A DNA stretch of 64,000 nucleotides from Clostridia bacterium. GTDB taxonomy: Bacteria > Bacillota > Clostridia > Oscillospirales > CAG-272. The position numbers were made by a program, and so were the translations under genes. This document shows, in pieces, positions 1,878 to 57,425 of this stretch. The stretch is from contig JAFVTI010000038.1 of NCBI GenBank assembly GCA_017503325.1, positions 114,428-178,427 of the forward strand, in the 5' to 3' direction. The notes below the pieces were generated by a model, which searched no databases, was not told the DNA's origin, and was given only the letters and a program-made list of their open reading frames with translations. Position 1 is the first letter of the stretch. Every line of letters starts with the position of its first letter.

Positions 1878-2027
1878 AGATATCTTCCTCCTTGTAAAAA
1901 TTACTATATAAATTGGTCAAGATACAGTTTGGGATTATACATTATACCATATTTTCCTTGGCTTGTAAAGACACATTTATACCAAATTTACGAAATGCAT
2001 CTCTGTGAGCACAGAAAGCATACAAAA

Positions 2028-2062: not shown

Positions 2063-3646
2063 TCAACCGATTGCCCACTCCATCTGTGCGCAGAGCTTTT
2101 TGAGCTGCTTTTCAAACGATCTCTCATACTTCGCCCACACAGAAGAGACCGAAGCGTTGCCGCTTTCCAGCGCGGTGCGGAACAGCATGACCTTTTCGCC
2201 GTCCGTCATGGCCATATAGTTACAGCCGAAATCAAAGGTCTTGGACTCCAGGATCAGCTGCAGCATTTCCACATCCTCGGGGCTTGAGCAAACACGCATG
2301 GAAAATTCCCCGTCATATAAGCCGTTATTGTACTGCCCCAAAGCTTCAAGCGCATAGCCCGCAAAATCCTGATTGCGCACGCTCTGCGGTACCATAACCG
2401 CGGTGGCATTGCAATCCACGTAAGAGTGATACTCCTCGACGTCCCAGTCAGCCTTGGGATACGGCATAATGCCGAATTGCGTGGAAGTATTGACCATATT
2501 CATAGCCTGCTCCAGCGTCGTGCCATAGAACAGCGCTCTGCCGTCCGCAAAGACCTTCTCGGGCACTTGCAATTGGTCATAATCCTGCATCACGTCGTTC
2601 ATGGTCACCCAGACCGAGGCGATATTATTGGTCAGATTGTAAAACACCTCGTATACCCACTCCATCTGAGGTAAGCCCTGACTAAGCACGGGGATCTGCG
2701 ATTCGTCCTTGACGATCAGGGATATACCTGCGCCCGTTGCGAAGGCTTGCGCTCCGTCAAAGGCAGAAACGTAAGAAAACAGATCCGCGTCGGCATCCGC
2801 CATGCCGTTACCGTTGAGATCCACGTAGTTGTTTGCCACCATGCCAAGCATCTTTTCCATGGTCCAGCCGCCTTCCCGGACGTAGCTGTACATATCGATA
2901 TGATTTTGCTCGGCAAGCTCAGGATTAAACAGGATCACAGAGGTCTTGAGCATGGCGTCGGGCGTGATCGAACCCGTTGCCATAGGCAGGTACGAGCCGT
3001 ATGCCAGGCCGTTGTAAATGTCCTCATCCCAGCGCTCGTGCGTCAGATCCACCCAAGGAAGCCCTGACAGATTGACCAGAGCACCGTTCTGCGCCAGGGG
3101 CGAGCCGTCGCGGGCGATTGAGCCAAATACGATGTCATAGCTGCCTTCTCCGGACACCACGTCGTTGAGCACCTGATCGTAAAGTGCAGTCTGCTCTACC
3201 AGAACGCCGTCCACCTCAATGCCGCAATAAGCCGTCAAGGCCGCATTGCGCGCATACGTGGCTTCCTCCATGGAATCTCCGGATCTCTCCGATCCAAGGT
3301 CGTGCTTGTGGATACCAAGCAGCGTCAGTCTCTCGCCCTCATACATGTGCATGGGCAGCTCGACCCAAGGGCCTTCGGTTTCGATCTCACCATAGGTCAC
3401 GTCCTCGGTCCACATTTCCTCAATCCAGGTCTCGGTTTCCCAATGTCCGTTGGTCTCGGTCTCAATGGGTACACCTCCTCCTACGGGAGGTTCAGGCTCT
3501 ATCACTCCAAGGTTCTCACCCGGCAGATCCAAATTTCCAAGCAGCTCGCCGACAATCCCGCCAAGCTCAAATTCGGCAAAATTGCAAGCGGTCAGCGCAC
3601 AGGTTAAGGTCAAACACAAAAGCGTGATCGCAATTCTCTTTTTCAT
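2063..3646 (-). CDS. orphan extracellular solute-binding-protein-like lipoprotein (divergent paralog of the 4679-12768 array)
   Basis: Internal ATG at 3646 with AAAGGAGAC upstream. N-terminus MKKRIAITLLCLTLTCALTAC (lipobox). Size and composition resemble ~500-aa family-1 sugar-binding SBPs. The ORF-track start at 3739 is an upstream extension. Confidence 0.55.
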   Translation of the reverse strand: MKKRIAITLLCLTLTCALTACNFAEFELGGIVGELLGNLDLPGENLGVIEPEPPVGGGVPIETETNGHWETETWIEEMWTEDVTYGEIETEGPWVELPMHMYEGERLTLLGIHKHDLGSERSGDSMEEATYARNAALTAYCGIEVDGVLVEQTALYDQVLNDVVSGEGSYDIVFGSIARDGSPLAQNGALVNLSGLPWVDLTHERWDEDIYNGLAYGSYLPMATGSITPDAMLKTSVILFNPELAEQNHIDMYSYVREGGWTMEKMLGMVANNYVDLNGNGMADADADLFSYVSAFDGAQAFATGAGISLIVKDESQIPVLSQGLPQMEWVYEVFYNLTNNIASVWVTMNDVMQDYDQLQVPEKVFADGRALFYGTTLEQAMNMVNTSTQFGIMPYPKADWDVEEYHSYVDCNATAVMVPQSVRNQDFAGYALEALGQYNNGLYDGEFSMRVCSSPEDVEMLQLILESKTFDFGCNYMAMTDGEKVMLFRTALESGNASVSSVWAKYERSFEKQLKKLCAQMEWAIG

Positions 3647-3752
3647 AAGCAGGTCTCCTTTCGGTTCTTTGAATCTATTATAGCAAATTTTCCCGCATTT
3701 GTAAATACGAAAAATACCTTCTACCCATATAGACGCCAAAAATGCAAAAAGG

Positions 3753-3796: not shown

Positions 3797-4615
3797 TCAA
3801 TTTGCGGGGACCAGCGTGATCTTGCGCGAGATACCGAGGTACGCGCCGCCCGTGATATACTGCACAAGCCCGGGGGCAAGCTCGTCCTCATGCGAGAAAT
3901 GCAAGTGCCCTGCGATGATGGCGGCAATCCCCGACGCGGGATCACGCACGTACTCGCAAAACGCTTCCGTTGCCTCGTTTTTGAGGATTGCGCCCGGCCC
4001 TATGTTGATATTTCTGCGCCAATCGCGCACCGTATCGTCATGCAGCGAAGGGCAATTGATGGGGATATGCATGCAAAGCAGGATCGGCTTGCCCTTCTCC
4101 TTCAATGCCATGAGAAAATCAATATCCTCCCTCTGCACGCACTCCATGCCGTCGTCAATACCCGCCACGATCAGATCGGGATACTCCAGATAGTGCCGCG
4201 CGACATCACCGTCCGAAAGTGCTGCAAACTTGCCGTAGTGCTGCGCTCTTGCCCCCTCGGTGTGATAATCGTCCGAATACGACCAATCGTGATTGCCTAT
4301 GACAAACATGGTCCCCAGGCCGCCTGCCCCGATCTCTCGATACAGGTCGCGCACGTTGGGGTCGCTTGGCGTATCCACGATATCCCCGGTCATGAGCATC
4401 AGATCTGCGCCCCATTCGCGCGCATCGGCATAAAAGCCCTGCAGCCTTTGCACACAAGGCGTGCCGTCGGTCTCAAAAATACATCTTGCACGCAAGGCCG
4501 CCTCGTCGTGGCGGGATTGCGGGTCGTTCTCTCCCATCCCCGTCAGATGCAGATCGGTGATATGATAAAGCTTATACGTATGCTGTAAGCCTCGGATGGC
4601 AATGGTGGTTTCCAT
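3797..4615 (-). CDS. metallophosphoesterase (calcineurin-like phosphoesterase family)
   Basis: Motifs HITDLHL, GDIVD, GNHDW and GHLH in the canonical order. ATG preceded by AAGGGAGAAAAAT. Confidence 0.8.
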   Translation of the reverse strand: METTIAIRGLQHTYKLYHITDLHLTGMGENDPQSRHDEAALRARCIFETDGTPCVQRLQGFYADAREWGADLMLMTGDIVDTPSDPNVRDLYREIGAGGLGTMFVIGNHDWSYSDDYHTEGARAQHYGKFAALSDGDVARHYLEYPDLIVAGIDDGMECVQREDIDFLMALKEKGKPILLCMHIPINCPSLHDDTVRDWRRNINIGPGAILKNEATEAFCEYVRDPASGIAAIIAGHLHFSHEDELAPGLVQYITGGAYLGISRKITLVPAN

Positions 4616-4678: not shown

Positions 4679-6142
4679 TTAGTAATCGTAGCCGTAGGCC
4701 TCGTAGATCTTCTTGAGCTCCTTGAGCGTCAGATTCTCATTCTTGGAAATGTCTCTGGTGATAGAGGCACTCTTTTCGTTAAGCGAGGTCTGAGCGATGG
4801 ATGCGCAAGGCAGATTGCCGAAGTGCGTATAGCCAAAGTCGAATACCTTGTGACGGATGATCACGTCAACCATCTCTGCGGACTCGGGGTCACGTGCATT
4901 CTTGGACTTAGCAACCTTATCGTACAGGGTATCGGTCACCATGTAGTAAGAGGTGGAAGCCAGGACCTCCAGCAAGTAGCCGGCATCCTCCAAAGCCTCA
5001 TCATCAAGGCTTACGGGTATGCATGCAGTGGGAGCAGCACCGTTTACGAATCCCAGGTACTCAGCCTGCTTCTCATCGTACTTAGGCTGAGGCAGGATAC
5101 CGAATTCGGTCTCCATCTCGCGCAGGCTCGTGCCATCGATCAAGGAACCTGCAAAGAACAGTGCTCTGCCCGACTTGAATACGTTGATGGGCTCAGCATA
5201 CATGGAGTTGTTTGCCAGGTATTCCTTTACGGTTACGTGGAAGGACTGCTGGGTCACAACCAGCTCGTAGATCTTGTCGTAGATCGTCTGCAGTCTGTCG
5301 GCGTTGGGCTGATAGACGGGCAGGTGGTCCTCGTCAAAGGTGAACATGGTGCAGCCGGAGCCAAACCAGAAGTTATAGTCACTTGCCATAGACCAACCTG
5401 TCAAACCGTAGAAGTCGTCGGTATAGTTTATCTTACCGTCACCGTTAAGGTCATTGGTCTGATCCTTGGTGATTTCCAGCATGTCGTCAAGTGTCCAGGT
5501 GCCGTTTCTTGCATCTTCATAAGGATAATCAAGGCTCTGCTCGTCGAACAGGGTCTTGTTGAACATCATAGCAGCGGTGAGCATCATAGAGGTAGGCAGC
5601 AGGTCGCCGCAGACCACAAACATGTTGTCACCGAACATAAAGCCGTTCTTGCAATCCTGGTCCCACCAGGGGTTGTCAAAGTTGACGTACTCCAGATCAG
5701 TCAGGTTATACAGACAGTTGCCCATACCCAGGCTGGTAGCAGCATCAACCATGTGCTGGTAAATGATGTGATACTCACCACTACCCGAGCTGACGTCATT
5801 CTTGACCTTCTGGCTCAGAGCGAGGTAGTCAAGCTCAACAATAGGATTGAGCTTTACACCGTAGTGGTTTTGAATCTTGTCGTTTCTTCTGTAAATGGCA
5901 TCCTCCAGGGGGTCGGATTTGTCCGGCTCATCAGAACCCATATCAGTCTCTGTCTGTACCAGAAGATTGAACTCCTTGCCATTCAGATCCTCATTAGGCT
6001 CCAGATCAGCACTGATCCACTGGGACTCTTCTTCGGAGGAGTCACCGGAAGACTTTTCATTTTCGTCAGTGTCAGCACAACCAACGAACATGCTGATCAG
6101 CATAAGGCCGCACAAAAGCATAGCTAAGAGCTTTTTGTACAT
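4679..6142 (-). CDS. SBP-like surface lipoprotein, tandem paralog 1
   Basis: MYKKLLAMLLCGLMLISMFVGCADT lipobox. Ends ..YEAYGYDY. Shares long identical blocks with paralogs 2 and 3 (NPWWDQDCKNGFMFGDNMF, FGILPQPKYDEKQ, VLASTSYYMV.DTLYDKVAKSKNARD). Confidence 0.6.
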   Translation of the reverse strand: MYKKLLAMLLCGLMLISMFVGCADTDENEKSSGDSSEEESQWISADLEPNEDLNGKEFNLLVQTETDMGSDEPDKSDPLEDAIYRRNDKIQNHYGVKLNPIVELDYLALSQKVKNDVSSGSGEYHIIYQHMVDAATSLGMGNCLYNLTDLEYVNFDNPWWDQDCKNGFMFGDNMFVVCGDLLPTSMMLTAAMMFNKTLFDEQSLDYPYEDARNGTWTLDDMLEITKDQTNDLNGDGKINYTDDFYGLTGWSMASDYNFWFGSGCTMFTFDEDHLPVYQPNADRLQTIYDKIYELVVTQQSFHVTVKEYLANNSMYAEPINVFKSGRALFFAGSLIDGTSLREMETEFGILPQPKYDEKQAEYLGFVNGAAPTACIPVSLDDEALEDAGYLLEVLASTSYYMVTDTLYDKVAKSKNARDPESAEMVDVIIRHKVFDFGYTHFGNLPCASIAQTSLNEKSASITRDISKNENLTLKELKKIYEAYGYDY

Positions 6143-6190
6143 GCTTGTTCCTTCTTTCGTATTTATTTTTTTGCATAGGTATACGCATTC

Positions 6191-6219
6191 ATTCTATCAC
6201 AAGAGTAAATTGTTGTCAA
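6191..6219 (-). promoter_or_regulatory. sigma-A-type promoter of paralog 1
   Basis: Minus strand reads TTGACA (6219-6214), 17 nt, TAGAAT (6196-6191), with TGTGA just upstream of the -10. Confidence 0.6.
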
Positions 6220-6286
6220 GGAAATAGTCATTGATTGTCAAGAAAAGAGTCATTGATTGTCAAGAAAAGAGTCAATAATTGACAAG
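6213..6286. repeat. three tandem 22-bp direct repeats (TTGTCAAGAAAAGAGTCATTGA) ending in the palindrome GTCAAT-A-ATTGAC
   Basis: Units at 6213-6234, 6235-6256 and 6257-6278. Palindrome at 6271-6283. Each unit carries TTGACA on the minus strand. Confidence 0.8.
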
Positions 6287-6328
6287 AATAATTTCGGCCA
6301 CATTTTGTGCAATTTGACACAAACAAAA

Positions 6329-6353
6329 AGAAACCCGCACGTGGCGGGTCTCT
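6329..6353 (-). terminator. terminator after paralog 2
   Basis: CCCGC-ACGTG-GCGGG core with extended imperfect stem. The minus strand continues TTCTTTTTGTTTG. Confidence 0.65.
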
Positions 6354-6374
6354 TGGTGGGTATTCGAATATCAA

Positions 6375-7844
6375 TTAGTAATCGTAGCCGTAAGCCTCGT
6401 AGACCGTCTTGAGTGCCTTGAGGGTCTGATTTTCGCTCTTGGAAATGTTTCTGGTGATAGAGGCACTGCCGCTGCCGAGCGAAGTCTGAACAATGGTTGC
6501 ACAAGGCAGACCCTGAACGTGGAAGTGGGTGTAACCAAAGTCGAATACCTTGTGACGAATGATCACGTCAACCATCTCGGCGGACTCCTCGTCACGTGCG
6601 TTCTTGGACTTAGCAACCTTATCGTACAGGGTATCGGTTACCATGTAGTAAGAGGTGGAAGCCAGAACCTCCAGCATGTAGCCGGCATCAGCAAGTGCTT
6701 CCGCGCCAAGGCTCTTGGGCACGCATGCAGTGGAAGCCGATCCGTTTACAAAGCTCAGGTACTCTTCCTGCTTCTCGTCGTACTTGGGCTGAGGCAGGAT
6801 ACCGAATTCGTCCGCCATCTCGCGGAAGCCGGTACCATCGGACAGGGAGCCTGCAAAGAACAGCGCTCTGCCTGCCTTGAATACGTTAGCAGGCTCAGCG
6901 TAAATAGCACTGTTAGCCTGGAAATCCTGCATGGTTACGTGGAAGGCCTGCTGAGTAATGATCAGCTCATAGATCTTATCGTAAATGGTCTGCAGTCTGT
7001 CAGTATTGGGCTGATAAACGGGCAGGTGATCCTCGTCAAAGGCGAACATGGTTGCACCGGAGCCAAACCAGAAGTTGTAGTCGCAAGCCAGAGTCCAGCC
7101 TGCAAGGCCGTAGAAGTCGTTGGAGTAGTCGACCTTACCGTCACCGTTGAGGTCACGGGTCTGGTCCTTAGTGATCTCCAGCATGTCGTCAATGGTCCAG
7201 GTGCCTTCTCTTGCATCCTCATAAGGATAATCAATGCTCTGCTCGTCGAACAGGGTCTTGTTGAACATCACGGAGGCGGTGATCATCATGGACGAAGGCA
7301 GCAGGTCGCCGCAGATCACGAACATGTTGTCACCAAACATAAAGCCGTTCTTGCAGTCCTGGTCCCACCAGGGGTTGTCAAAGTTGACGTAATCCAGCTC
7401 GGTCAGATTGTACAAATTACCACCGGTACCGAGGTTGGTTGCTGCGTCTACCATATGCTGGTAAACGATGTGGTATTCACCACTGCCCGAGGTAACGTCG
7501 TTCTTGACCTTCTGGCTAAGCGCACTGTAGTCAATTTCAACCAAAGAGTTGAGTTTGACACCGTAATAGTTCTGGATCTTGTCGTTTCTTCTGTAAACGG
7601 CGTCCTCCAGGGGGTCGGATTTGTCCGGCTCCTCTGCCCCCATATCGGTCTCACTCTGTGTAAGGATGTTGATATCCTTACCCTTCAGACCCGGGTTGGG
7701 CTCCAGATCAGCGCTGATCCACTGGGACTCTTCTTCGGAGGAGTCACCGGAAGACTCTTCATTTTCGTCAGTGTCAGCACAACCAACGAACATGCTGATC
7801 AGCATAAGGCCGCACAAAAGCATAGCCAAGAGCTTTTTGTACAT
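6375..7844 (-). CDS. SBP-like surface lipoprotein, tandem paralog 2
   Basis: Same signal peptide/lipobox and the same C-terminal YEAYGYDY as paralog 1. Full-length ORF of 489 aa. Confidence 0.6.
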   Translation of the reverse strand: MYKKLLAMLLCGLMLISMFVGCADTDENEESSGDSSEEESQWISADLEPNPGLKGKDINILTQSETDMGAEEPDKSDPLEDAVYRRNDKIQNYYGVKLNSLVEIDYSALSQKVKNDVTSGSGEYHIVYQHMVDAATNLGTGGNLYNLTELDYVNFDNPWWDQDCKNGFMFGDNMFVICGDLLPSSMMITASVMFNKTLFDEQSIDYPYEDAREGTWTIDDMLEITKDQTRDLNGDGKVDYSNDFYGLAGWTLACDYNFWFGSGATMFAFDEDHLPVYQPNTDRLQTIYDKIYELIITQQAFHVTMQDFQANSAIYAEPANVFKAGRALFFAGSLSDGTGFREMADEFGILPQPKYDEKQEEYLSFVNGSASTACVPKSLGAEALADAGYMLEVLASTSYYMVTDTLYDKVAKSKNARDEESAEMVDVIIRHKVFDFGYTHFHVQGLPCATIVQTSLGSGSASITRNISKSENQTLKALKTVYEAYGYDY

Positions 7845-7892
7845 GCTTGTTTCCTTCTTTCGTATTTATTTTTTGCATAGGTATACGCATTC

Positions 7893-7921
7893 ATTTTATC
7901 ACAAGAGTAAATTGTTGTCAA
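7893..7921 (-). promoter_or_regulatory. sigma-A-type promoter of paralog 2
   Basis: Minus strand reads TTGACA (7921-7916), 17 nt, TAAAAT (7898-7893). Confidence 0.6.
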
Positions 7922-7988
7922 GGAAGAAGTCATTGATTGTCAAGAAAAGAGTCATTGATTGTCAAGAAAAGAGTCAATAATTGACAAG
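7915..7988. repeat. second copy of the 3 x 22-bp repeat plus palindrome block
   Basis: Units at 7915-7936, 7937-7958 and 7959-7980, then TTGACAAG. The whole 232-bp spacer 7845-8076 is near-identical to 6143-6374. Confidence 0.8.
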
Positions 7989-8030
7989 AATAATTTCGGC
8001 CACATTTTGTGCAATTTGACACAAACAAAA

Positions 8031-8055
8031 AGAAACCCGCACGTGGCGGGTTTCT
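8031..8055 (-). terminator. terminator after paralog 3
   Basis: Perfect 10-bp stem AGAAACCCGC / GCGGGTTTCT with loop ACGTG, and a T-run on the minus strand. Confidence 0.7.
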
Positions 8056-8076
8056 TGGTGGGTATTCGAATATCAA

Positions 8077-9546
8077 TTAGTAATCGTAGCCGTATGCCTC
8101 GTAGATCTTTTTCAGAGCCTTAGTGGTCTGCTTTTCGCTCTTGGTAATGTCTCTGGTGATAGAGGCACTCTTGCTGTTGAGTGCAGTCTGAACGATGGAT
8201 GCGCAAGGCAGGCCATCGTTGTGGAAGTGGGTATAGCCAAAGTCGAATACTCTGTGACGGATGATGACGTCAACCATCTCAGCGGACTCCTCGTCACGTG
8301 CGTTCTTGGACTTAGCAACCTTATCATACAGCGTATCGGATACCATGTAGTAAGAGGTGGAAGCCAGAACCTCCAGCATGTAGCCGGCGTCTGCCAGAGC
8401 ATCCTCGGAAAGGCTCTTGGGTACGCATGCGGTGGAAGCTGCACCGTTGACGAAGCTCAGGTACTCTTCCTGCTTCTCATCGTACTTGGGCTGAGGCAGG
8501 ATACCGAATTCGTTCTCCATCTCGCGCAGACCCGTACCTGCGGACAGGTAGCCTGCATAGAACAGTGCTCTGCCTGCCTTGAATACGTTGGAGGGCTCCT
8601 CATACATCGAGTTGTTGGACAGGTATTCCTGAACGGTTACGTGGAAGGACTGCTGGGTCACGATCAGCTCGTAGATCTTATCGTAGACGGTCTGCAGTCT
8701 GTCGGTGTTGGGCTGATATACGGGCAGGTGATCCTCGTCAAAGGTGAACATGGTGCAGCCTGCGCCGAACCAGAAGTTGTAGTCACAGTCCAGCGACCAG
8801 CCTACAAGGCCGTAGAAGTCGTCGGTGTAAAGTACCTTACCGTCACCGTTGAGGTCACGGGTCTGGTCCTTGGTCATCAGCAGCATGTCGTCGATGGTCC
8901 AGGTGCCGTCTCTTGCATCCTGATAAGGATACTCAAGGCTCTGCTCGTCAAACAGGTTCTTGTTGAACATAACGGCAGCGGTGATCATCATAGAGGAAGG
9001 CAGCAGGTCGCCGCAGACCACGAACATGTTGTCACCGAACATGAAGCCGTTCTTGCAGTCCTGGTCCCACCAGGGGTTGTCAAAGTTGACATACTCCAGG
9101 TCGGTCAGGTTATACAGGCAGTTACCCATACCCAGGTTGGTAGCAGCGTTTACCATGTGCTGGTAAACGATGTGGTATTCACCACTACCGGAGCTTACGT
9201 CGTTCTTGACCTTGTCGCCAAGTGCAACGTAGTCAAGCTCAACCAGCGGATTAAGAGTCACGCCGTAGAAGTTCTGGATCTTGTCGTTTCTTCTGTAAAC
9301 GGCATCCTCCAGGGGGTCGGATTTGTCCGGCTCCTCTGCGCCCATATCGGTCTCGGAGTTTGCAAGAATATTGATCTCCTTGCCCTTCAGACCCTCATTG
9401 GGCTCCAGATCGGCACTGACCCAGTTGGTCTCTTCCTCGGTGGAGGCATCGGTAGAGGTTTCCTCTTCACCGGTGTCAGCACAGCCGACGAATACGCTGA
9501 TCAGCATCAGGCCGCACAAAAGCATAGCTAAAAGCTTCTTGTACAT
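8077..9546 (-). CDS. SBP-like surface lipoprotein, tandem paralog 3
   Basis: MYKKLLAMLLCGLMLISVFVGCADT. 489 aa. Ends YEAYGYDY. Confidence 0.6.
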   Translation of the reverse strand: MYKKLLAMLLCGLMLISVFVGCADTGEEETSTDASTEEETNWVSADLEPNEGLKGKEINILANSETDMGAEEPDKSDPLEDAVYRRNDKIQNFYGVTLNPLVELDYVALGDKVKNDVSSGSGEYHIVYQHMVNAATNLGMGNCLYNLTDLEYVNFDNPWWDQDCKNGFMFGDNMFVVCGDLLPSSMMITAAVMFNKNLFDEQSLEYPYQDARDGTWTIDDMLLMTKDQTRDLNGDGKVLYTDDFYGLVGWSLDCDYNFWFGAGCTMFTFDEDHLPVYQPNTDRLQTVYDKIYELIVTQQSFHVTVQEYLSNNSMYEEPSNVFKAGRALFYAGYLSAGTGLREMENEFGILPQPKYDEKQEEYLSFVNGAASTACVPKSLSEDALADAGYMLEVLASTSYYMVSDTLYDKVAKSKNARDEESAEMVDVIIRHRVFDFGYTHFHNDGLPCASIVQTALNSKSASITRDITKSEKQTTKALKKIYEAYGYDY

Positions 9547-9696
9547 ACTTGTTTCCTTCTTTCATAATATTTTGCATAGGTATACACCTACATTCTACCA
9601 CAAGAGTCTGTTCTTGTCAAGAAAAATTTTCAACCCCGATTTTATATAGTCGAAGCCTGCACCGCGGTGCAGGCTTCTCTTCTTTGTTTCGTTTTA

Positions 9697-11172
9697 TCAG
9701 CCGTCGTAGCCGTACGCCTCCAGGATCTTATCCAGTTCCTTTCGGGTATTCTTTTGCGAATTGGTCAGATCTCTGACAATAGAGGGACGCTTATCCTGCA
9801 GCGCAACCATAATGATATTGGAGCACGGCAGATTCTTGTGTGAGAAATGCAGATAGCCGAAATCAAAGACCTTGTGACGGATGATGATGTCCACCATTTC
9901 GGCAGACTCCTCGTCGCGCGCGTTCTTGGACTTGGCGATCACGTCGTACAGCGTATCCGTTACCATATAATAAGACGAGGACGCCAGCGCCTCCATCATA
10001 AAGCCGGTGGTCTCCAGCTTTTGCTCGGACAGGCTGACGGGGACGATCGCAACGCTTGCAGCCGCGTTGACAAAGCCGAGATAATCCTTTTGCGTTTCGT
10101 CATACTTGGGCTGCGGCAGGATGCCGTAGTCGTCGATCATATCACGCAGATTGGTGGTGATGGACAGATTGGTGGGAAACAGCAGCGCACGTCCGTCACG
10201 GAACACCTCAATGGTGCCAAAATACAGATTGTTGTCCTTGAGATACTCGTTATAGGTCAGGTGGTAGGTATCGGGAGACAGCAGCAGCGCGGCGGTCTTC
10301 TCATAGATCGACTGCAGCTTATCGGTGTCGGGGGCAAAGGTGGGAATGTGCTGATCATCGTAGGTGAACATGGTCGCGCCCGCACCGTAAAAGAAGTTAT
10401 AGTCGCAGTCCAATGCCCAAGAGGTAATGCCGAAGAAATCGTCGGTGTACAAAATCTTGCCGTCACCGTTGAGGTCCTTGGCCTGGTCCTTGATCATGCC
10501 CTGCATATCGTCCATGGTCCACGTGCCTGCTCTTGCATCCTCGTAAGGATATTCCCAGCCGCGCTCATCAAACAGATTCTTGTTGAACAGCACGGATCCC
10601 GGGATCAGCTGCGTTGTGGGGATCAGGTCGCCGCAGGCCATCATCATATGATCGCCGATGGCAAGACCGTTCTTGCAGTCCTGGTCCCACCAGGTCTGAT
10701 CAAAGTCCACAAATTCCAGCTCGGACAGATCGTACAAATAGCCGCCCAGGGCGAGATTGTACGCAGCGTTGCCCATATGCTGATATACGAGATTGAATTC
10801 CCCCGTTCCGGCAGCCGTATCGTTCTTGATCGCATCCGCGATCACGTCAAGGCTTGGCTCGTCGGAGTTGTTGAATACGATCCCGTATTCTGTCTGCAGT
10901 CTGTCGTTTCTGCGGTATACTGCATCCTCAAGCGGATCGGACGAATTTTCCTCCGGGCCAATATCATATCGGCTTTGCGCCAAAATGACGAATTCCTGAC
11001 CCGCAAGCGGCGTTTCAAGCTTGGAAGGGTCCAGCGTCTCGGCAACCCAAAGCTCCTTTTCTTCAGTCGCCTCCGAGGACTGCTCCTCATTTTCCCCTTG
11101 CGCGCAGCCCGCAAGCAAGCCCACAAGCATCAAAGCACTCAAAAGCAAACATAAAATTCTGTCTTTCATCAT
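9697..11172 (-). CDS. SBP-like surface lipoprotein, tandem paralog 4 (more divergent)
   Basis: ATG at 11172 or 11169 after GTGAGG. MMKDRILCLLLSALMLVGLLAGC lipobox. Conserved blocks WWDQDCKNG, YGILPQPKYDE, KSKNARDEESAEMVDIIIRHKVFDFGY. Ends EAYGYDG. Confidence 0.6.
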   Translation of the reverse strand: MMKDRILCLLLSALMLVGLLAGCAQGENEEQSSEATEEKELWVAETLDPSKLETPLAGQEFVILAQSRYDIGPEENSSDPLEDAVYRRNDRLQTEYGIVFNNSDEPSLDVIADAIKNDTAAGTGEFNLVYQHMGNAAYNLALGGYLYDLSELEFVDFDQTWWDQDCKNGLAIGDHMMMACGDLIPTTQLIPGSVLFNKNLFDERGWEYPYEDARAGTWTMDDMQGMIKDQAKDLNGDGKILYTDDFFGITSWALDCDYNFFYGAGATMFTYDDQHIPTFAPDTDKLQSIYEKTAALLLSPDTYHLTYNEYLKDNNLYFGTIEVFRDGRALLFPTNLSITTNLRDMIDDYGILPQPKYDETQKDYLGFVNAAASVAIVPVSLSEQKLETTGFMMEALASSSYYMVTDTLYDVIAKSKNARDEESAEMVDIIIRHKVFDFGYLHFSHKNLPCSNIIMVALQDKRPSIVRDLTNSQKNTRKELDKILEAYGYDG

Positions 11173-11286
11173 AAACCTCACTGTTTTCGGTATTTATACG
11201 AATATCATATCACATACTTTGCCGTCTGTCAAGAGAGCCGGGTCACACATGACCCGGCTCTCTTTATATTTGATTTGTTCGGTTGA

Positions 11287-12768
11287 TCAATCGTAGCCGT
11301 AAGCTCTCAGAATCTTCTTGAGCTCGTTTCTGGTTCTTCTCTCGGAGTTGGTGATCTCCTTGACGATCGAGGTTCTGTTTGCCTGCAGCGCGGTCTGGGC
11401 GACGTTGAAGCAGGGGAAATCCTGACCGGAGAAATGCGAATAACCAAAGTCAAACACCTTGTGACGGATGATAATATCCACCATTTGTGCAGATTCCTCG
11501 TCACGAGCGTTCTTGGACTTGGCCACAACGTCGTAAAGGGTATCCGTGGTCATGTGATAGGACGAGGACGCCAGCGCTTCCATCATAAAGCCTGCGACCT
11601 CCAGATTAGCATCGCTCAAGCTGCCCGGCACGCACGCCATGCTTGCGCTGCCGTTGACAAAGCCGAGGTAATCCTCCTGCTTTTCATCATACTTGGGGTT
11701 GGGCAGGATGCCGTAGTCATCCACCATATCACGCAAGGAAGTAGTCGTAGACAGGTAGGTCGGGAAGAACAGCGCTCTGCCGTCTCTGAACACATCGATG
11801 GTCTTGTTGTACATGCCCGGATCTGTTTCGTACTGTGCCCAGATCACGTGGAAGGAATTCTGCGTGATCAGCAGCTCGTAGATCTTTTCGTAAATTGCCT
11901 GCAATCTGTCGGTGTCGGGATCAAATACGGGCAGGTGGTCCTCGTCGTAGGAGAACATGGTCGCACCCGAGCCAAAGAACAGATTGAAGTCTGCGTCGGC
12001 TGCCCATGCGGTCACACCGAAGAAATCGTCGTCGTGGAAGATTCTGCCGTCACCGTTGAGGTCCTTGGTCTGGTCCTTGGTCAGCTCCAGCATATCGTCC
12101 ATGGTCCAGTTCCCTTCCCGTGCGTCCTCGTAAGGGTAATCCCAGCCGTTGCGGTCGAACAGGTTCTTGTTAAACAGGACCGTTGCAGTGATCAGCATCG
12201 TCGAGGGCAGCAGGTCGCCGCACACCATCATCATGCTGTCGCCAATGACAAAGCCCTTCTTGCAATCCTGGTCCCACCACTCGTTATCAAAATTGACGTA
12301 TTCCAGATCGGTCAGGTTATACAGATAATTGCCGGGAGCCAGGCTGCGCGCTGCCTCGATCATGTGCTGATACACGATGTGGAATTCACCCGTGCCCGCG
12401 GTCACGTCGTTTTTGACGTTGGTGGAAATAACCGCGAAATCGGGCTGGTACTGATTGTTGAATTCAATGCCCAGCTCTGCCTTGAGCTTGTCGTCTCTTC
12501 TGTAAACGGCATCCTCAAGCGGGTCGGACGAATTTTCCTCGGGGCTGATATCGTACTTGTTGTACGCCAGAATGTTGATCTCCTGTCCCTGCAGGCTGAC
12601 GCTCAGCTTCTCGGGATCCAGCTCAGGGTTCATCCAATACGTTTCCTCTTCGGTAACGCCCTGGGAGCCCTCCGGGGTCTCTCCCTGATCGGGCTTATCC
12701 ACGCAGCCTGCAAGCACGGCAAGCAGCATAAGCACACCGAGAAGGATGCATAAGAGTCTGATCTTCAT
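11287..12768 (-). CDS. SBP-like surface lipoprotein, tandem paralog 5
   Basis: ATG at 12768, 8 nt after AGAGAGG. MKIRLLCILLGVLMLLAVLAGC lipobox. Same conserved blocks as paralog 4. The ORF-track start at 12774 is a TTG. Confidence 0.6.
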   Translation of the reverse strand: MKIRLLCILLGVLMLLAVLAGCVDKPDQGETPEGSQGVTEEETYWMNPELDPEKLSVSLQGQEINILAYNKYDISPEENSSDPLEDAVYRRDDKLKAELGIEFNNQYQPDFAVISTNVKNDVTAGTGEFHIVYQHMIEAARSLAPGNYLYNLTDLEYVNFDNEWWDQDCKKGFVIGDSMMMVCGDLLPSTMLITATVLFNKNLFDRNGWDYPYEDAREGNWTMDDMLELTKDQTKDLNGDGRIFHDDDFFGVTAWAADADFNLFFGSGATMFSYDEDHLPVFDPDTDRLQAIYEKIYELLITQNSFHVIWAQYETDPGMYNKTIDVFRDGRALFFPTYLSTTTSLRDMVDDYGILPNPKYDEKQEDYLGFVNGSASMACVPGSLSDANLEVAGFMMEALASSSYHMTTDTLYDVVAKSKNARDEESAQMVDIIIRHKVFDFGYSHFSGQDFPCFNVAQTALQANRTSIVKEITNSERRTRNELKKILRAYGYD

Positions 12769-12802
12769 TTGCAAAACCTCTCTTTAATATAGAATTACCT
12801 GT

Positions 12803-12831
12803 ATTTTACCACTTTTGCCCGGAATTGTCAA
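12803..12831 (-). promoter_or_regulatory. sigma-A-type promoter of paralog 5
   Basis: Minus strand reads TTGACA (12831-12826), 17 nt, TAAAAT (12808-12803), with TGG extended -10. Confidence 0.6.
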
Positions 12832-12843
12832 GTCAAATTGGCT

Positions 12844-14337
12844 TCATTCTGCTTTTTTCTGTGCTTTGCGTCGGATCAGGCGTATAATCAGAAGGATCAG
12901 AACGATCACAAGCACGATGGCCACCACCGCGCCCAGAATGACCAACAGTACGGGCAGGACGAAGAACAAAAACAGAAACCAAATAAATGCAAAGCCGCTT
13001 GTCTCGATTGGATTTTTCCACTTGCACAGCGTCACGTAGTAAACACCACTTTTGGGCGTGGAGCGCTCGGACAGCGTATATCCCTTCCGATCCTTTTTGT
13101 AGTTATCAACAGAGAGGCTGTTTCTCTCGTCGGTCATGATCTTGAGCTTTGTATCGATTCTGACCGTGTACTTCCCTACCGATTTCCAATCGGAGCTGCC
13201 GTGGAAATGATAGGTGAAGGTGGCCGCCTTGGGGCTGTAATACTCCATCACGTCGGGATAAACCGGCAAGGTGATGGAATTGACCGTGCTCTCGCCCGCA
13301 CCCAGCGTGACGTCGTAGGTCAGAAATCCTTGCAGATTGGACGTAACATCCAGCTCCATCCGTGTCTGATAACCAATCAGACAGGTGTCTTTCAGCTGAC
13401 TGCATATCAACATACTAAAGACGGCATTGTACCAATCCTTTTCAGGAATGCCCGCATCCGGGTCGTACTCGCTCATGGCAAGCTCGCCAAAGGTGGTGGT
13501 GCTCTGTTCTACCAGCTGCACGTCGCAGCCTCCAACCCGTTTGCCGTCATCGGTCAGCTTCCAATTGACTTCTCCGATATCCTCACCCAGCACGTACAAA
13601 GTCACAAGCGAACCCTTTGAAACTCGCACACGCATTTGGGGAATTGCATTTTCCTCGTAAACGTCGACATGTTTATCGGAAAAGATCAACGTGCGGGATG
13701 CATCATAATCAAAGTCGGCGACCATGTCGCAATAAAAGCTTTCGTTATTTCCCGACGTAGAATAAGGCTGATAGGTATACACCGTAACGGGCAGATCGGG
13801 CGACAGGAGCGAGTGTGCAGCATAGGAATCCTGCAGATTCTCTGCCCAATCACGAGGATCATAACCGCTGCGGCCTGTTTGATAGTTTTGCGAATTAGGC
13901 GTCCATGCGTAGCGAAGCTCGGGCGTGACTCGCTCACCGCCCACCTCCACGGTATAGAATGAAGCAAGCTGCGCTCTTGTACAAAGCCTTTGCGCATAGG
14001 AGGGCGCGTTGGCTGCGGCAAACATCATTTTCACCGTTTGCTCGGTGTCGGTGGGGTTGGAAAAGGTATAGTCCAGGCGCAGCGTTGAGGAATACTTTTC
14101 CAAAAGCTCCGATTGGTCAAATTCATCTGCCGGCAGCTCGGGAATATCGTAGGTCAGTGCCAGGCTCTCCATGCTCAGCTGACTCTTGCGCCCCTTTGGG
14201 AAAACGCCAAAGACGTCTATACCGGGATCGGGCTCTATGGGCGACATGGCAGACGCGGGTAGGATGGCTAAGGCGCACAGCAAAATTGCCATCGCGCCTG
14301 CAGCCAGGTGCTTGAAAAATTTTTGATATCGATTCAT
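12844..14337 (-). CDS. exported protein of unknown family with long C-terminal hydrophobic anchor (paralog P1)
   Basis: Signal peptide ..AILLCALAILPASAMSP. C-terminus FAFIWFLFLFFVLPVLLVILGAVVAIVLVIVLILLIIRLIRRKAQKKAE. Shares TTTFGELAM..YDP.AGI...DW.NA with P2 and P3. Confidence 0.7.
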   Translation of the reverse strand: MNRYQKFFKHLAAGAMAILLCALAILPASAMSPIEPDPGIDVFGVFPKGRKSQLSMESLALTYDIPELPADEFDQSELLEKYSSTLRLDYTFSNPTDTEQTVKMMFAAANAPSYAQRLCTRAQLASFYTVEVGGERVTPELRYAWTPNSQNYQTGRSGYDPRDWAENLQDSYAAHSLLSPDLPVTVYTYQPYSTSGNNESFYCDMVADFDYDASRTLIFSDKHVDVYEENAIPQMRVRVSKGSLVTLYVLGEDIGEVNWKLTDDGKRVGGCDVQLVEQSTTTFGELAMSEYDPDAGIPEKDWYNAVFSMLICSQLKDTCLIGYQTRMELDVTSNLQGFLTYDVTLGAGESTVNSITLPVYPDVMEYYSPKAATFTYHFHGSSDWKSVGKYTVRIDTKLKIMTDERNSLSVDNYKKDRKGYTLSERSTPKSGVYYVTLCKWKNPIETSGFAFIWFLFLFFVLPVLLVILGAVVAIVLVIVLILLIIRLIRRKAQKKAE

Positions 14338-14346
14338 AAATTGTCC

Positions 14347-14637
14347 TCCGTTCGTTTAGCCGAACGGGAGCCGAACCAAGTTGGTTTTGACGGGCAGATT
14401 TTCCCGATCCCTGCATCTTTTCTCCCCGGACATATTGCCTATATGCCCTGCGAGAAAAGCTTTTGGGCTCAAAAAAATCTGCTGCGTCAAAACTGCTCGC
14501 ACCCGACGGCGAATGCATTTTTGATAGATTTTGGCGCGATTTTGCGAAGCAAGATACCAATCTTGCGAGTGAAAGCACGCCGGAAGATGCGAAAATGCAT
14601 CGTCGTCGGGCAATTCGGTTCGACTCCCGTTCGGCTA
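14347..14637 (-). promoter_or_regulatory. structured intercistronic RNA element with three mutually complementary segments, one covering the P1 Shine-Dalgarno
   Basis: Segment 14617-14637 (GGTTCGACTCCCGTTCGGCTA) is the inverse complement of 14357-14377, with 20 of 21 positions matching. The latter also pairs locally with 14347-14355, next to GGAGG. Confidence 0.45.
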
Positions 14638-14675
14638 TCCTTCATCAATCAGGACAGGATTCTTCCGTTTTGATT

Positions 14676-16160
14676 TCACTCTTGCTGCGTTTTTTTGCGT
14701 TTTTTGCGCTTGATGATCGCACGGACGATCAAAATCACAACCGCAACGGGCAGCGCAACGGCAAGCACCGGGACCAGCACGACGATCAGGATCAGCACGA
14801 GCATCAGTACCGAATAGGCATTGAAAACGCGCTTGGGATTTTCCGTGGAGCTGAGCGTAAACACCAGATCCCGCTCGGGCAAGCCGTCAATGTGCAGCTC
14901 GTAGCCCGCCTCGGTCTTGATCCACTCCCCCGGAGCTATGCTAAACTCTCCCTTTCGTTCCTTGACCATGACGTACGGCGTGTTGACGTAAATATCCAAC
15001 GTGCCGAACTCCTTCCAGAGCGAGGCGGGGGAGGTCAGATATTCATAGATGTAGATCGGAACGTCGTATCCTCCGTCAATATTCGGATAAAGCGGGGCTT
15101 TTACGGTATTGGTCAAACGCTCACCCGGGGCGATCTTGATTTGATACTCGTACCATTGCAAAAGATGCCCGGAAATATCCCAGTCGTTCACGACACCGCC
15201 ATACAGACCGATCGGCTTACCCGACTGCTCCAGCTGCGCCACGATGGCATTGAACCAATCGTGCGCCGCGATCCCCGCCGCGGGATCGTAGCATTGCATG
15301 GCAAGCTCGCCAAAGGTGGTGCTTGTCTTGTCCACCACGCTCATGCTGCCCTCGATCCGTGTCTCCAGGGAGCCGTTTTCATAAAACTCCCATTTCAACT
15401 CCCCGGCGTCCTCGCCAAACACGTACACCGTGATCTCGGGATCGGACAGGTGCACGGAAGCAAAACCCGCATTTCCGTTCTCGTCAGAGCTGTATCCGCT
15501 CATATGCTCCAGCATAAAGCGCGTCTTTTCCAATGCTCCGTCAAAATACGTAGCCGCACGTGCCGAGCGGTAGGTCTCACGGTCCACGCCGCTGACGCTG
15601 TAGGTGTAGATATATACGGGCAGATCAAAGGTCAGAAAGCTGTCGGTACGGTAATCGCTGTACAGCTTTGCCATTTCCTCGGCAGGATCAAAATCATAGA
15701 GCGATCCGCCCCAATAGCTGTGCCGAATCACGGTATCCACGTCTGCTCCGTTGACCTGTGCTCCGTATTTTGAAGCATTATCGGGGGTGACGTATTCTCC
15801 CAGCTCGGAATTGTAAAATTCCGCATAATAGGGGTTGATACCAAACGGAAACAGCAGATTTGCCGTGACCGTCATGTCACTTGGGTTATAAAAGGTATAC
15901 TCTGCCGTCACGCTTGCATCGTACGCAAGGTAGTCCTTTGCGCTGCCAAAATGATTGGCGGGAAATTCCGCAATATCAAAGGTCAGCGTTTCGTGCTCGA
16001 CCACCAACGGGCATTCCCCATCGGTGACCAATACGCCCGAAGCGTTGACGCCCTCCCAATACGACTCCGCAGAATTGGCGGACGCAGGCAGGACGGCAAG
16101 CAGGCACAGAAGTGCGGCCAACAGCGCCGCAAGGGCGACTTTTGTTTTCTTACGCATCAT
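14676..16160 (-). CDS. exported protein of unknown family with C-terminal hydrophobic anchor (paralog P2)
   Basis: MMRKKTKVALAALLAALLCLLAVLPASANS signal. C-terminus ..LMLVLILIVVLVPVLAVALPVAVVILIVRAIIKRKKRKKTQQE. Its start overlaps the P3 stop (16150-16160). Confidence 0.7.
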   Translation of the reverse strand: MMRKKTKVALAALLAALLCLLAVLPASANSAESYWEGVNASGVLVTDGECPLVVEHETLTFDIAEFPANHFGSAKDYLAYDASVTAEYTFYNPSDMTVTANLLFPFGINPYYAEFYNSELGEYVTPDNASKYGAQVNGADVDTVIRHSYWGGSLYDFDPAEEMAKLYSDYRTDSFLTFDLPVYIYTYSVSGVDRETYRSARAATYFDGALEKTRFMLEHMSGYSSDENGNAGFASVHLSDPEITVYVFGEDAGELKWEFYENGSLETRIEGSMSVVDKTSTTFGELAMQCYDPAAGIAAHDWFNAIVAQLEQSGKPIGLYGGVVNDWDISGHLLQWYEYQIKIAPGERLTNTVKAPLYPNIDGGYDVPIYIYEYLTSPASLWKEFGTLDIYVNTPYVMVKERKGEFSIAPGEWIKTEAGYELHIDGLPERDLVFTLSSTENPKRVFNAYSVLMLVLILIVVLVPVLAVALPVAVVILIVRAIIKRKKRKKTQQE

Positions 16161-17730: not shown

Positions 17731-17850
17731 AGACGTTTCCTCCAAATCATAATGCGGTTGGGGGCTTCTATCTATACAGTCGGAAAAAATGTGTTTTCGT
17801 TCCGTTTTTCGCCAAAAAACGTTTGTTAATATTTTGTGAATGACTCGGAA

Positions 17851-47894: not shown

Positions 47895-48308
47895 TTTTTC
47901 ATACCTCTTTTTTGAATGATGCTTCGCGAAACTCGCCATGAAGCTTGTTACATTTGTTACGTACATTATACGAACACGCAGAATTTTTGTCAAGGCAAAG
48001 TCAAGTTTGTTCACAATTCCATGCAGATAATGTTACAATTGTCACTATTCGCGATACACTTCCGGTTCTTTTATCACAGTATACATTGCAAGCATTTTCT
48101 CTGCCGCAGGTGCAGATATTTGCCACGCAAAACCGTGTGAGTTTGGCTCTCTTCGGCTATACGAGCAAAAGTTTTGCTTTTCTTTTTAGTTTTGTCAAGC
48201 TTTTGTTGAAACATGAAAGAAAGAAGTTTCCATACTTCTCTCTTATATCTTGCAATTGCAAAATTTGTATGCTATAATGAATTATATTCCATATTACAGG
48301 AGGTTTTT

Positions 48309-51554: not shown

Positions 51555-51643
51555 CATGCCATCTTGTGTATTGACAATTCCGGCTGACTGTGTTATACTT
51601 ATTATGTATGAGTATATCAAGAATACATACGGAGGAAATACAT

Positions 51644-57400: not shown

Positions 57401-57425
57401 GCACATACTTGAGATAGGAATTCCT

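Follow-up and report, generated by a model that had tools for sequence, protein, structure and literature searches.

In Gram-positive gut bacteria that degrade fibre, the uptake of oligosaccharides is thought to proceed through SBP-dependent ABC importers encoded in compact operons. The HMO clusters of Bifidobacterium longum subsp. infantis contain tandem Family-1 SBP paralogs that outnumber the permeases, an arrangement thought to widen ligand range. In Borrelia burgdorferi, the chromosomal bmpD-C-A-B (PnrA-like) and oppA1-3 genes encode head-to-tail SBP-type lipoprotein paralogs, partly with their own promoters, and the bmp genes are not adjacent to their permease. Tandem lipoprotein paralogs with conserved ends are also known from the lpl (DUF576) cluster of Staphylococcus aureus, which has a role in host interaction and whose copy number varies between strains via unequal recombination.

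Here, we describe an array of five intact lipoprotein genes, P1 to P5, which lie head-to-tail on the minus strand and encode proteins of 487-493 aa. The array is part of a 64-kb stretch of DNA, all of which was analysed and which is referred to below as the window, from the metagenome-assembled genome of an uncultured herbivore-gut member of the Clostridia.

P1, 4679-6142, minus strand: 487-aa SBP-fold lipoprotein, lipobox FVGC; derived and faster-evolving; missing in some strains
P2, 6375-7844, minus strand: 489-aa paralog; missing in the commonest strain type; a P2-type body fills the last slot in other strains
P3, 8077-9546, minus strand: 489-aa paralog; slow-evolving; counterpart of the single P3-type gene of the sister species
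P4, 9697-11172, minus strand: paralog of 490 or 491 aa, member of an old clade, lipobox LAGC
P5, 11287-12768, minus strand: 493-aa paralog of an old clade, lipobox LAGC; Pfam SBP_bac_8 match of 30 bits

Layout and promoters of the array

The open reading frame of P4 covers 9697-11181, with its probable start at the ATG at 11172 or 11169 and not at the GTG at 11181, and that of P5 covers 11287-12774, with the ATG at 12768 as the likely true start; both proposals agree with the 490- and 493-aa gene calls in relatives. Lipoboxes, read by eye, are FVGC in P1-P3, LAGC in P4 and P5, and LTAC and LFAC in two distant family members of the window, D1 and D2, and in all seven proteins they are preceded by a basic n-region and a hydrophobic h-region; acidic linkers, again read directly, come after them. 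P1-P3 have in common the signal peptide MYKKLLAMLLCGLMLIS[M/V]FVGC and the C-terminus YEAYGYDY, the array repeats with a period of 1696-1702 bp, and the spacers 6143-6374 and 7845-8076 differ in only 6 alignment columns. At the amino acid level, P1-P3 are mutually 82-83% identical, P4 and P5 are 64% identical, and P1-P3 share 53-59% identity with P4 or P5. This layout is as described in the original prediction, which had noted five minus-strand genes of about 490 aa, near-identical signal peptides and C-termini in P1-P3, near-identical 232-bp spacers and a repeat period of about 1.7 kb.

A near-consensus extended -10 promoter (11/12 matches) lies 5' of each gene.

P1 promoter, 6191-6219, minus strand: TTGACA-17-TAGAAT with TG extension
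P2 promoter, 7893-7921, minus strand: TTGACA-17-TAAAAT with TG extension
P3 promoter, 9592-9620, minus strand: TTGACA-17-TAGAAT with TG extension
P4 promoter, 11204-11232, minus strand: TTGACA-17-TATGAT with TG extension; the foot of the hairpin 3' of P5 reaches into its -35 box
P5 promoter, 12803-12831, minus strand: TTGACA-17-TAAAAT with TG extension

Among the seven best-scoring sites in 16 kb, five are these promoters; the remaining two lie upstream of D1 and of a CotH-domain gene. The pattern extends to other species, where an extended -10 promoter was found for 73 of 119 family genes and for 5 of 119 random controls. Upstream of P1 and P2, the -35 box and promoter spacer recur in a tandem 22-bp repeat whose copy number is identical in all strains.

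6201-6288, minus strand: four tandem 22-bp units (TCTTGACAATCAATGACTCTTT) upstream of P1, repeating the -35 box and promoter spacer
7903-7990, minus strand: four tandem 22-bp units of the same repeat (TCTTGACAATCAATGACTCTTT) upstream of P2

The 3' sides of the genes are less uniform.

6328-6354, minus strand: intrinsic terminator after P2, 11-bp stem followed by a T-run
8030-8056, minus strand: intrinsic terminator after P3, canonical hairpin and U-tract in sense orientation
9652-9677, no strand assigned: GC-rich hairpin after P4, with a T-run on the plus strand only
11231-11264, no strand assigned: GC-rich hairpin after P5, 15-bp stem, with a T-run on the plus strand only

A canonical sense-orientation hairpin with a U-tract is present after P3 and P2 only, and the 3' side of P1 has only a weak hairpin. 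Of the expectations for transcription, that of a TTGACA-17-TAnAAT promoter for every gene was borne out, with TATGAT as a variant -10 box, and that of a hairpin terminator after every gene held for P2 and P3 and failed for P4 and P5, which have no sense T-run, and for P1. Each gene having its own promoter, the array agrees with the earlier view of separate transcription units and not an operon, and we infer that every array gene is transcribed on its own from a strong promoter. No RNA element turned up in or near the array in Rfam and tRNA scans, and the only Rfam matches, to a TPP riboswitch and to RNase P RNA, lie a long way downstream of it.

The following neighbours and distant relatives are relevant to the discussion below.

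D1, 2063-3646, minus strand: distant family member with lipobox LTAC, 527 aa when counted from the ATG, own promoter at 3677-3705
Metallophosphoesterase gene, 3797-4615, minus strand: begins 63 bp downstream of P1
N1-N3, 12844-17745, minus strand: three tandem paralogs of about 500 aa, directly upstream of the array
D2, 52671-54158, plus strand: 495-aa family member, the most distant one in the window; lipobox LFAC

The family HMM recognises both D1 (open reading frame 2063-3739, minus strand; E=1.8e-82) and D2 (E=1.9e-46), so both had been rightly proposed as distant members, with the strand of D2 now corrected to plus. The metallophosphoesterase gene comes after the array in most relatives with this gene order, and may be co-transcribed with P1. 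In each of N1-N3, a signal peptide precedes an all-beta ectodomain, and the C-terminal TM helix leaves only a short basic tail in the cytoplasm, which lacks any signalling domain. In every related species for which the upstream flank was recovered, an array of 1-4 N-type genes lies directly upstream, on the same strand. As single-pass proteins with an all-beta ectodomain, the N-type neighbours were ruled out as transporters.

Fold and family of the array proteins

Structural comparison identifies P1-P5 as lipid-anchored extracytoplasmic proteins with a type-II periplasmic-binding-protein fold of the CUT1 (MalE-like) kind. A Foldseek search of the PDB with an AlphaFold (AF2) model (pLDDT 88, pTM 0.84) returned 837 matches at E<=0.001, with MalE-like (CUT1) oligosaccharide SBPs as the sole class among the top matches (E 1e-12 to 1e-10, probability 1.0), in support of the SBP assignment made originally. 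Nearly all of the top 50 PDB matches are CUT1 SBPs or MBP fusions, and the matches include AbnE, Lmo0181, cyclodextrin- and maltodextrin-binding proteins, RafE and CbpB; the TM-scores (by target) of the top matches are 0.55-0.67. The motif DLNGDGK is common to the array family and AbnE.

Sequence profiles barely detect this fold. Pfam SBP_bac_8 matches P2 (28.6 bits) and P5 (30 bits) marginally, at a cutoff of 27, and the SBP_bac_1 and SBP_bac_8 profiles gave no match for P1, P3, P4, D1 or D2. Many homologs carry a precomputed SBP_bac_8 assignment; of 10 distant family representatives compared with Pfam, 2 pass, 2 fall below threshold and 6 have no match. NCBIfam had no meaningful match for P1, P4, P5 or D1, and a PDB sequence-profile search with the family alignment returned AbnE only, at a non-significant E=0.23. 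P1-P5 belong to a large, barely annotated SBP subfamily, the family comprising at least 4000 clusters at 50% identity, and the closest subfamily members are confined to uncultured Clostridia/Eubacteriales of herbivore guts. Full-text literature searches on orphan or tandem SBP lipoprotein arrays returned no description of the array family, the only analogue that turned up being B. burgdorferi BmpA, the subject of a structure paper (PMC13325309).

The array evolves by birth-and-death

P1-P3 had been read as recent duplicates. Because dS among them is 0.45-0.59, recent duplication of the gene bodies is rejected, and their divergence is as old as the split from the sister species (dS ~0.5). The only young part of the P1-P3 units is a tract of about 390 bp, present twice.

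6011-6403, minus strand: tract copy A, 3' end of P2 (~9 codons), spacer S12 and 5' end of P1 (~44 codons)
7713-8105, minus strand: tract copy B, 3' end of P3 (~9 codons), spacer S23 and 5' end of P2 (~44 codons)

The two copies are 97.7% identical, compared with ~84% for the gene bodies, and pS is 0.05 within the tract and 0.4-0.6 outside it; by permutation, the portion within the P1 and P2 genes is significant at p<=0.0005. The tract marks gene conversion or unequal crossover, and on this point the suggestion of gene conversion was correct. It is the sole significant tract, and it covers the spacer, signal peptide and linker, with the mature body outside; the same GENECONV-style permutation found none in the other nine paralog pairs (best P2-P4, p=0.048, uncorrected), and no mosaic bodies were seen among the paralogs. 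An origin of P2 as a P1/P3 chimera via a simple recent unequal crossover was ruled out; the P2 body is ~85% identical to both.

All copies are under purifying selection, with dN/dS of 0.19-0.26 for all 10 paralog pairs (Nei-Gojobori) and no 40-codon window in which dN/dS exceeds 1 (pN>pS). Relative to outgroups, dN is 0.09-0.12 for P1 and P2 and 0.063-0.069 for P3, a non-synonymous rate about 1.5 times that of P3, which fits relaxed constraint or ligand-range sub-functionalisation and is no demonstration of positive selection.

Independent metagenome contigs of the same species, 96-99% identical, carry five-copy (P5-P4-P3-P2-P1), P2-less four-copy (P5-P4-P3-P1) or P1-less four-copy (P5-P4-P3-P2) arrays, and related sister species have 2-4 copies. 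The variants join within the last ~9 codons and within the spacer and 5' end, so that a P1-type body, a P2-type body or both in tandem stand between the same flanks; the conserved ends act as recombination junctions, which had been foreseen. The four-copy arrays come from short-read metagenome assemblies, in which the P2-less type could still reflect collapse of the 390-bp repeat; the longest exact match within this repeat is 125 bp, shorter than k=141, and the P1-less type cannot arise via assembly collapse. With copy number at the same position differing between close relatives, and with junctions in conserved sequence, the array evolves by birth-and-death. An ancestral pair, one P5-type and one P3-type gene, expanded to the present 3-5 genes, with the conserved 3' codons, spacer and 5' signal-peptide/linker region providing homology for unequal crossover or gene conversion. 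Such recombination between ends adds, removes or swaps entire mature-protein bodies between strains.

Possible functions and comparison with known systems

As originally stated, the 64-kb window contains no ABC permease or ATPase gene (an SMC protein and an ECF ThiT-like S component are its only related items), and our flank search extends the absence of permeases to the whole family. No ABC permease was found within 10 kb of ~170 family members in 67 genomic loci, where the EAA motif is absent from all ORFs in 1.27 Mb of flanks and no BPD_transp_1-type permease occurs, and none of 94 immediate neighbours of family genes has a permease domain. Polytopic ORFs near family members were rejected as CUT1 permeases: they are ABC-2 exporter, SpoIIIAE or TMEM164 proteins or have no Pfam match. 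Such systematic unlinking from permeases is unusual for CUT1 SBPs. The related genomes of 5 species encode a solitary MalK-type ATPase (domains ABC_tran, OB_MalK and TOBE_2) ~4.5 kb from a singleton member, and some family loci have carbohydrate-flavoured neighbours, including AraC regulators, GH127, GH115, aldose epimerase and sugar-isomerase TIM barrels.

On balance, we lean towards the view that the array encodes receptors for glycan oligosaccharides that feed a transporter encoded elsewhere and that evolve by birth-and-death. The paralogs would probably bind related yet distinct plant-glycan oligosaccharides at the cell surface and pass them to CUT1 permeases, of which one or a few pairs would be encoded at other loci, with import energised by a stand-alone MsmX/MalK-type ATPase. 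Because no permease was found at the family loci, delivery to a transporter is something that we purely infer.

It is possible, though we think it doubtful, that the proteins bind glycans at the surface and feed no transporter at all, the SBP fold having been recruited for a lectin or capture protein, a Gram-positive analogue of the SusD/E/F type that might hold polysaccharide or attach the cell to plant particles, possibly with N-type partners. The missing permease neighbours across the whole family would be explained, the strong, constitutive-looking promoters suggest abundant surface proteins, and D2 sits behind two other lipoprotein genes, one of which encodes a 1099-aa lipoprotein with a weak pectate-lyase-like match. 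The N-type array directly preceding P1-P5 on the same strand, and the N-type genes that also adjoin singleton family genes at three loci (L050, L051, L063), would fit as well; however, more distant family members have no N-type neighbours, and the adjacency may therefore be plain conserved gene order, and the N-type fold is uninformative, its sole match being the uncharacterised Legionella protein lpg2210 (TM 0.45). Moreover, the MalK-type ATPase implies CUT1 importers in related genomes, and ABC transporter receptor is the best-documented role for lipoproteins of the SBP fold. It is tempting to speculate further, and only tentatively, that the whole family has left ABC transport and, in herbivore-gut Clostridia, forms a Gram-positive glycan-capture layer at the surface, made by strongly expressed, strain-variable arrays and maybe with N-type partners of DUF4424-like fold.

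The conserved ends and variable bodies, the alternative P1-type or P2-type bodies between identical flanks and the copy-number differences between strains might also recall a variable surface-antigen or phage-receptor family that recombines to escape host immunity or phage, and diversification of antigenic type had indeed been proposed. We consider this unlikely and the proposal unsustained: with dN/dS of ~0.2 and no window above 1, 81 family residues are invariant in all five copies across paralogs of 50% identity, bodies are not mosaic and the single significant tract is located outside the mature protein. As all copies have a promoter, none is a silent cassette, and there are neither phase-variable simple repeats nor invertible elements, the number of 22-bp repeats being fixed.

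Similarly unlikely are ligand-sensing co-receptors that present ligands to histidine kinases, chemoreceptors or N-type proteins and not to transporters. Sensor-dedicated SBPs are known in cellulolytic clostridia, permeases are absent, and AraC-type regulators are occasional neighbours (3/94), but neither a histidine kinase nor a chemoreceptor is among the most frequent families of the neighbour census or anywhere among the Pfam-scanned proteins of the window, the N-type tail carries no signalling domain, and at least five strongly expressed paralogs per locus would be excessive for sensing. Finally, an erroneous tandem duplication in the MAG is a very improbable source of the fifth copy, even though contigs from other samples often break within the array, since P1 and P2, with 16% nucleotide divergence, are no duplicated read pile, and P2 followed by P1 recurs, with 100% identical proteins, in the independent assemblies L016 and L017.

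The receptor reading, were it correct, would make this array a clear natural example of a substrate range widened by adding receptors alone to a shared permease; if the proteins do not feed a permease, the SBP fold has taken on a new role at the cell surface. Either way, a divergent SBP-type lipoprotein without any linked permease occurs in this uncultured lineage in at least 7 copies per 64 kb, and one relative has at least 9 in its genome; the array, moreover, differs in size between strains of a single species. Standard annotation largely misses the family (6 of the 10 sampled representatives have no Pfam match), and transport capacity inferred from MAGs is therefore biased for these organisms.

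Compared with the variable systems Vsp/Vlp of Mycoplasma and vls of Borrelia, the array differs in having no signal of diversifying selection, silent cassettes, signs of phase-variable expression or mosaic bodies. Its likeness to S. aureus lpl is one of genome dynamics only (tandem paralogs, conserved ends, copy-number variation), as fold and family are unrelated and the role there is in host interaction. The bmp and oppA genes of Borrelia are likewise head-to-tail SBP lipoprotein paralogs, partly with promoters of their own, and for bmp the permease is unlinked too; however, they belong to other SBP clusters (nucleoside, peptide), their copy number is stable, and homology reaches no further than the superfamily fold. 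The gut glycan specialist B. longum subsp. infantis likewise has oligosaccharide SBPs as multiple tandem paralogs, but its HMO clusters contain permease and glycosidase genes, whereas the array has none linked and represents a separate, divergent clade. From the CUT1 SBP lipoproteins of Gram-positive ABC importers (AbnE, 6rjy; Lmo0181, 5f7v; RafE, 6pql; CbpB, 7x0i), the array proteins are set apart by just 11-15% identity, a mature part ~50 residues longer, scores at or below the Pfam threshold with nothing in NCBIfam, and genes that never adjoin permease genes and are predicted to be monocistronic with strong promoters of their own. Yet both groups have the two-lobe fold, a lipoprotein anchor with a flexible acidic linker and the DxNGDGK motif, and many aromatic and acidic residues are conserved between them.

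Five tandem lipoproteins and their predicted fold

The original prediction of five head-to-tail lipoprotein genes was borne out, as P1-P5 are real and intact open reading frames (ORFs) on the minus strand. A family HMM also recovers the two distant members, D1 and D2, that had been proposed elsewhere in the window.

Lipoprotein family members in the window
4679-6142, minus strand: P1, intact ORF, 487 aa
6375-7844, minus strand: P2, intact ORF, 489 aa
8077-9546, minus strand: P3, intact ORF, 489 aa
9697-11172 (ATG), minus strand: P4, intact ORF, 490-491 aa
11287-12768 (ATG), minus strand: P5, intact ORF, 493 aa
2063-3739, minus strand: D1 ORF, family HMM E=1.8e-82
52671-54158, plus strand: D2, family HMM E=1.9e-46

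P1-P3 are 82-83% identical to one another in protein sequence (84-85% in DNA) and 53-59% identical to P4 and P5, which share 64% identity. All five carry a signal peptide with a terminal lipobox cysteine (FVGC or LAGC) and then an acidic linker, end in (E/R)AYGYD, and keep the 81 residues that do not vary across the family, among which aromatic and acidic ones are frequent.

These proteins lie at the limit of what the Pfam profiles for substrate-binding proteins (SBPs) detect: SBP_bac_8 matches P2 (28.6 bits) and P5 (30 bits) just over its cutoff of 27 and does not match P1, P3, or P4, an NCBIfam search returned nothing, and the sole match in a PDB profile search was AbnE (E=0.23), through a common FNK...W...DLNGDGK segment. 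From a 52-sequence family alignment, AlphaFold2 gave a confident model of P1 (pLDDT 88, pTM 0.84), and the Foldseek matches of that model in the PDB are mostly CUT1 (MalE-like) oligosaccharide-binding proteins or MBP fusions, including Arad_9887, AbnE, Lmo0181, cyclo-/maltodextrin-binding proteins, RafE, and CbpB (E 1e-12 to 1e-10, probability 1.0, TM up to 0.67, identity 11-15%). The earlier SBP assignment is thus upheld, and an SBP fold with carbohydrate-type topology is confirmed at the level of the predicted structure. Among clusters at 50% identity, the family profile reaches 4029 at E<=1e-30 and 9332 at E<=1e-3, and most sampled representatives have no Pfam match or a sub-threshold one only.

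D2 closes a run of three plus-strand lipoprotein genes, after 48213-51512 (1099 aa, with a weak, sub-threshold pectate-lyase/RHGA-like match) and 51590-52627 (345 aa, without a Pfam match), and this cluster may represent a surface glycan-degrading module. Positions 1-1941 (minus strand) encode the N-terminal part of a protein of ~1257 aa that extends past the window start and has LTD, Fn3_assoc, CHB_HEX_C_1, and CotH domains; in the close relatives examined, this CotH-domain gene comes after D1, with the spoIIIA operon beyond.

Old gene bodies and one young tract

All five copies are under purifying selection, with dN/dS of 0.19-0.26 in all ten pairs (Nei-Gojobori). Recent duplication or gene conversion had been suggested, and this holds for a single tract but not for the gene bodies. 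Synonymous divergence (dS) within the P1-P3 group is 0.45-0.53 for complete genes, reaching as much as 0.59 when the tract is excluded, and is 0.41-0.53 to sister species with one P3-type gene; the bodies are, therefore, as old as the split from those species. The young tract (~6011-6403 versus 7713-8105) differs at 9 of 393 columns. It starts ~9 codons before the end of one gene, runs through the spacer, and stops ~44 codons into the gene downstream. The two 232-bp spacers, correctly described as near-identical, differ at 6 alignment columns, and synonymous divergence is 0.05 across codons 1-40, which belong to the tract, versus 0.4-0.6 outside it. A GENECONV-style permutation test, run as a check for gene conversion, identified P1/P2 codons 6-55 (p<=0.0005) and no significant tract in any other pair, showing one young conversion or crossover tract.

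A neighbour-joining tree resolves three old clades, of P4, P5, and P3 types, with P1 and P2 on long branches within the P3 clade. The dN of P1/P2 to outgroups is ~1.5 times that of P3, and ω is 0.19-0.22 for P1/P2 versus 0.13-0.15 for P3.

We compared the window, itself part of a MAG, with independent metagenome contigs at 96-99% identity.

Array arrangements among strains
P5-P4-P3-P2-P1: window, L016, and L017; proteins 100% identical
P5-P4-P3-P1: L010-L015 shown; P1-type protein in 23 contigs from JGI and ENA samples
P5-P4-P3-P2': L004, L006, and L007; L005 and L008 end before the fourth gene

The P2' gene has a P2-type body that turns to P1-type sequence ~30 nt before the stop codon, and it sits next to the metallophosphoesterase gene in just the position that P1 has in the window. 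The body of the mature protein therefore acts like a cassette between conserved 5' and 3' junctions, and whole cassettes are shown to be gained or lost at conserved gene ends. This comparison rests on short-read assemblies, for which the longest exact inter-repeat match (125 bp) is below k=141; the P1-less arrangement cannot come from repeat collapse. At the same chromosomal position, sister species have two copies (P5-type plus P3-type), three, or four.

Promoters and the 22-bp repeat

Each of P1-P5 is preceded by its own promoter, as predicted, of the form TTGACA-17-TAnAAT or TATGAT with a TG extension (11/12 matches), and a 16-kb promoter scan ranks these five at the top along with those of D1 and the CotH-domain gene. 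In other species, an extended -10 promoter occurs no more than 200 bp upstream of 61% of family genes, versus 4% of random controls. The hairpin terminators predicted after every gene hold in canonical form, a sense-orientation hairpin with a T-run, only 3' of P3 and P2; the strong hairpins 3' of P5 and P4 have their T-run on the opposite strand, and P1 has only a weak hairpin, with the metallophosphoesterase gene beginning 63 bp downstream. Each gene would be transcribed separately from its own strong promoter.

Four tandem 22-bp units (TCTTGACAATCAATGACTCTTT) that repeat the -35 box and promoter spacer lie at 6201-6288, upstream of P1, and again at 7903-7990, upstream of P2. They occur at these two genes alone, and P3 has a single ancestral copy. 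The first unit contains the palindrome GTCAAT-T-ATTGAC. Copy number is constant in all strains examined, and the units could serve as an array of binding sites for a regulator or as weak promoters in tandem.

Orphan status and possible roles

The window contains no ABC permease or ABC-importer ATPase gene, in agreement with the original prediction. The remainder is core chromosome (ftsY, smc, rnc, trmFO-like, topA, dprA, lon, lysA, scpAB, dacB-like, tpiA, pgk), with a TPP riboswitch (57301-57412) upstream of a ThiT-like ECF S-component gene (57648-58319) that is followed by class A RNase P RNA (58353-58715). A genome scan gave 67 family loci, several per genome, all in uncultured Eubacteriales, Clostridia, or Oscillospiraceae MAGs whose named sources are mostly ruminant, horse, or other guts. 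Across the fetched loci and the window (1.27 Mb, about 170 family members), no ORF carries the EAA permease motif, polytopic ORFs are few and none tested is a CUT1 permease, and none of 94 immediate neighbours of family members has a permease domain. Orphan status is a property of the whole family.

Recurrent neighbours are sugar-isomerase-like TIM barrels, metallophosphoesterase, and pseudouridine synthase; AraC regulators, GH127, GH115, and aldose epimerase occur occasionally. In five species, a solitary MalK/MsmX-type ATPase gene (ABC_tran, OB_MalK, TOBE_2; L026:4313-5422, minus strand, with matching genes in L023, L025, L027, and L029), without adjacent permease genes, lies ~4.5 kb from a singleton member, and a xylose-isomerase-like TIM-barrel gene is next in line after the singleton. 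The solitary ATPase implies that CUT1 importers probably exist elsewhere in these genomes. In the preferred reading, the paralogs probably differ in the plant-derived oligosaccharides that they bind and would hand these on to a permease whose genes lie elsewhere, which the solitary ATPase would power.

The main alternative is a non-transport role in surface binding, possibly with the N-type proteins, whose three tandem genes lie directly upstream of the array.

N-type genes
12844-14337, minus strand: N1, tandem paralog
14676-16160, minus strand: N2, tandem paralog
16150-17745, minus strand: N3, tandem paralog

In its favour, wherever the upstream flank was recovered in a related species, an N-type array precedes the lipoprotein array in the same orientation, and N-type genes adjoin singleton family genes at three further loci (L050, L051, and L063). 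N1-N3 are ~30% identical to each other, and in each an all-beta ectodomain lies between the signal peptide and a C-terminal TM helix that carries a basic tail. N1 matches the product of IKB28_09405, from a 'Clostridia bacterium' MAG, at 100% identity. A Pfam search gave no match for them, and the only fold match of the N-type AF2 model (pLDDT 85.6) is Legionella lpg2210 (4g2a, annotated 'putative nutrient binding protein'; E=1.3e-5, TM 0.45). The N2-N1 intergenic gap (14338-14675) is unusually long at 339 bp, and tRNA and Rfam scans of it found nothing. Diversification of antigenic type, also proposed originally, is unsupported because dN/dS is low, mature bodies are not mosaic, silent cassettes are absent, and promoter repeat number is fixed.

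By fold, the array proteins resemble CUT1 SBPs. They lack the genomic linkage expected of a transporter receptor. In organisation, the closest analogues of the array are the SBP expansions of Bifidobacterium infantis and the bmp and oppA paralog arrays of Borrelia, while the lpl cluster of S. aureus is comparable in genome dynamics only.
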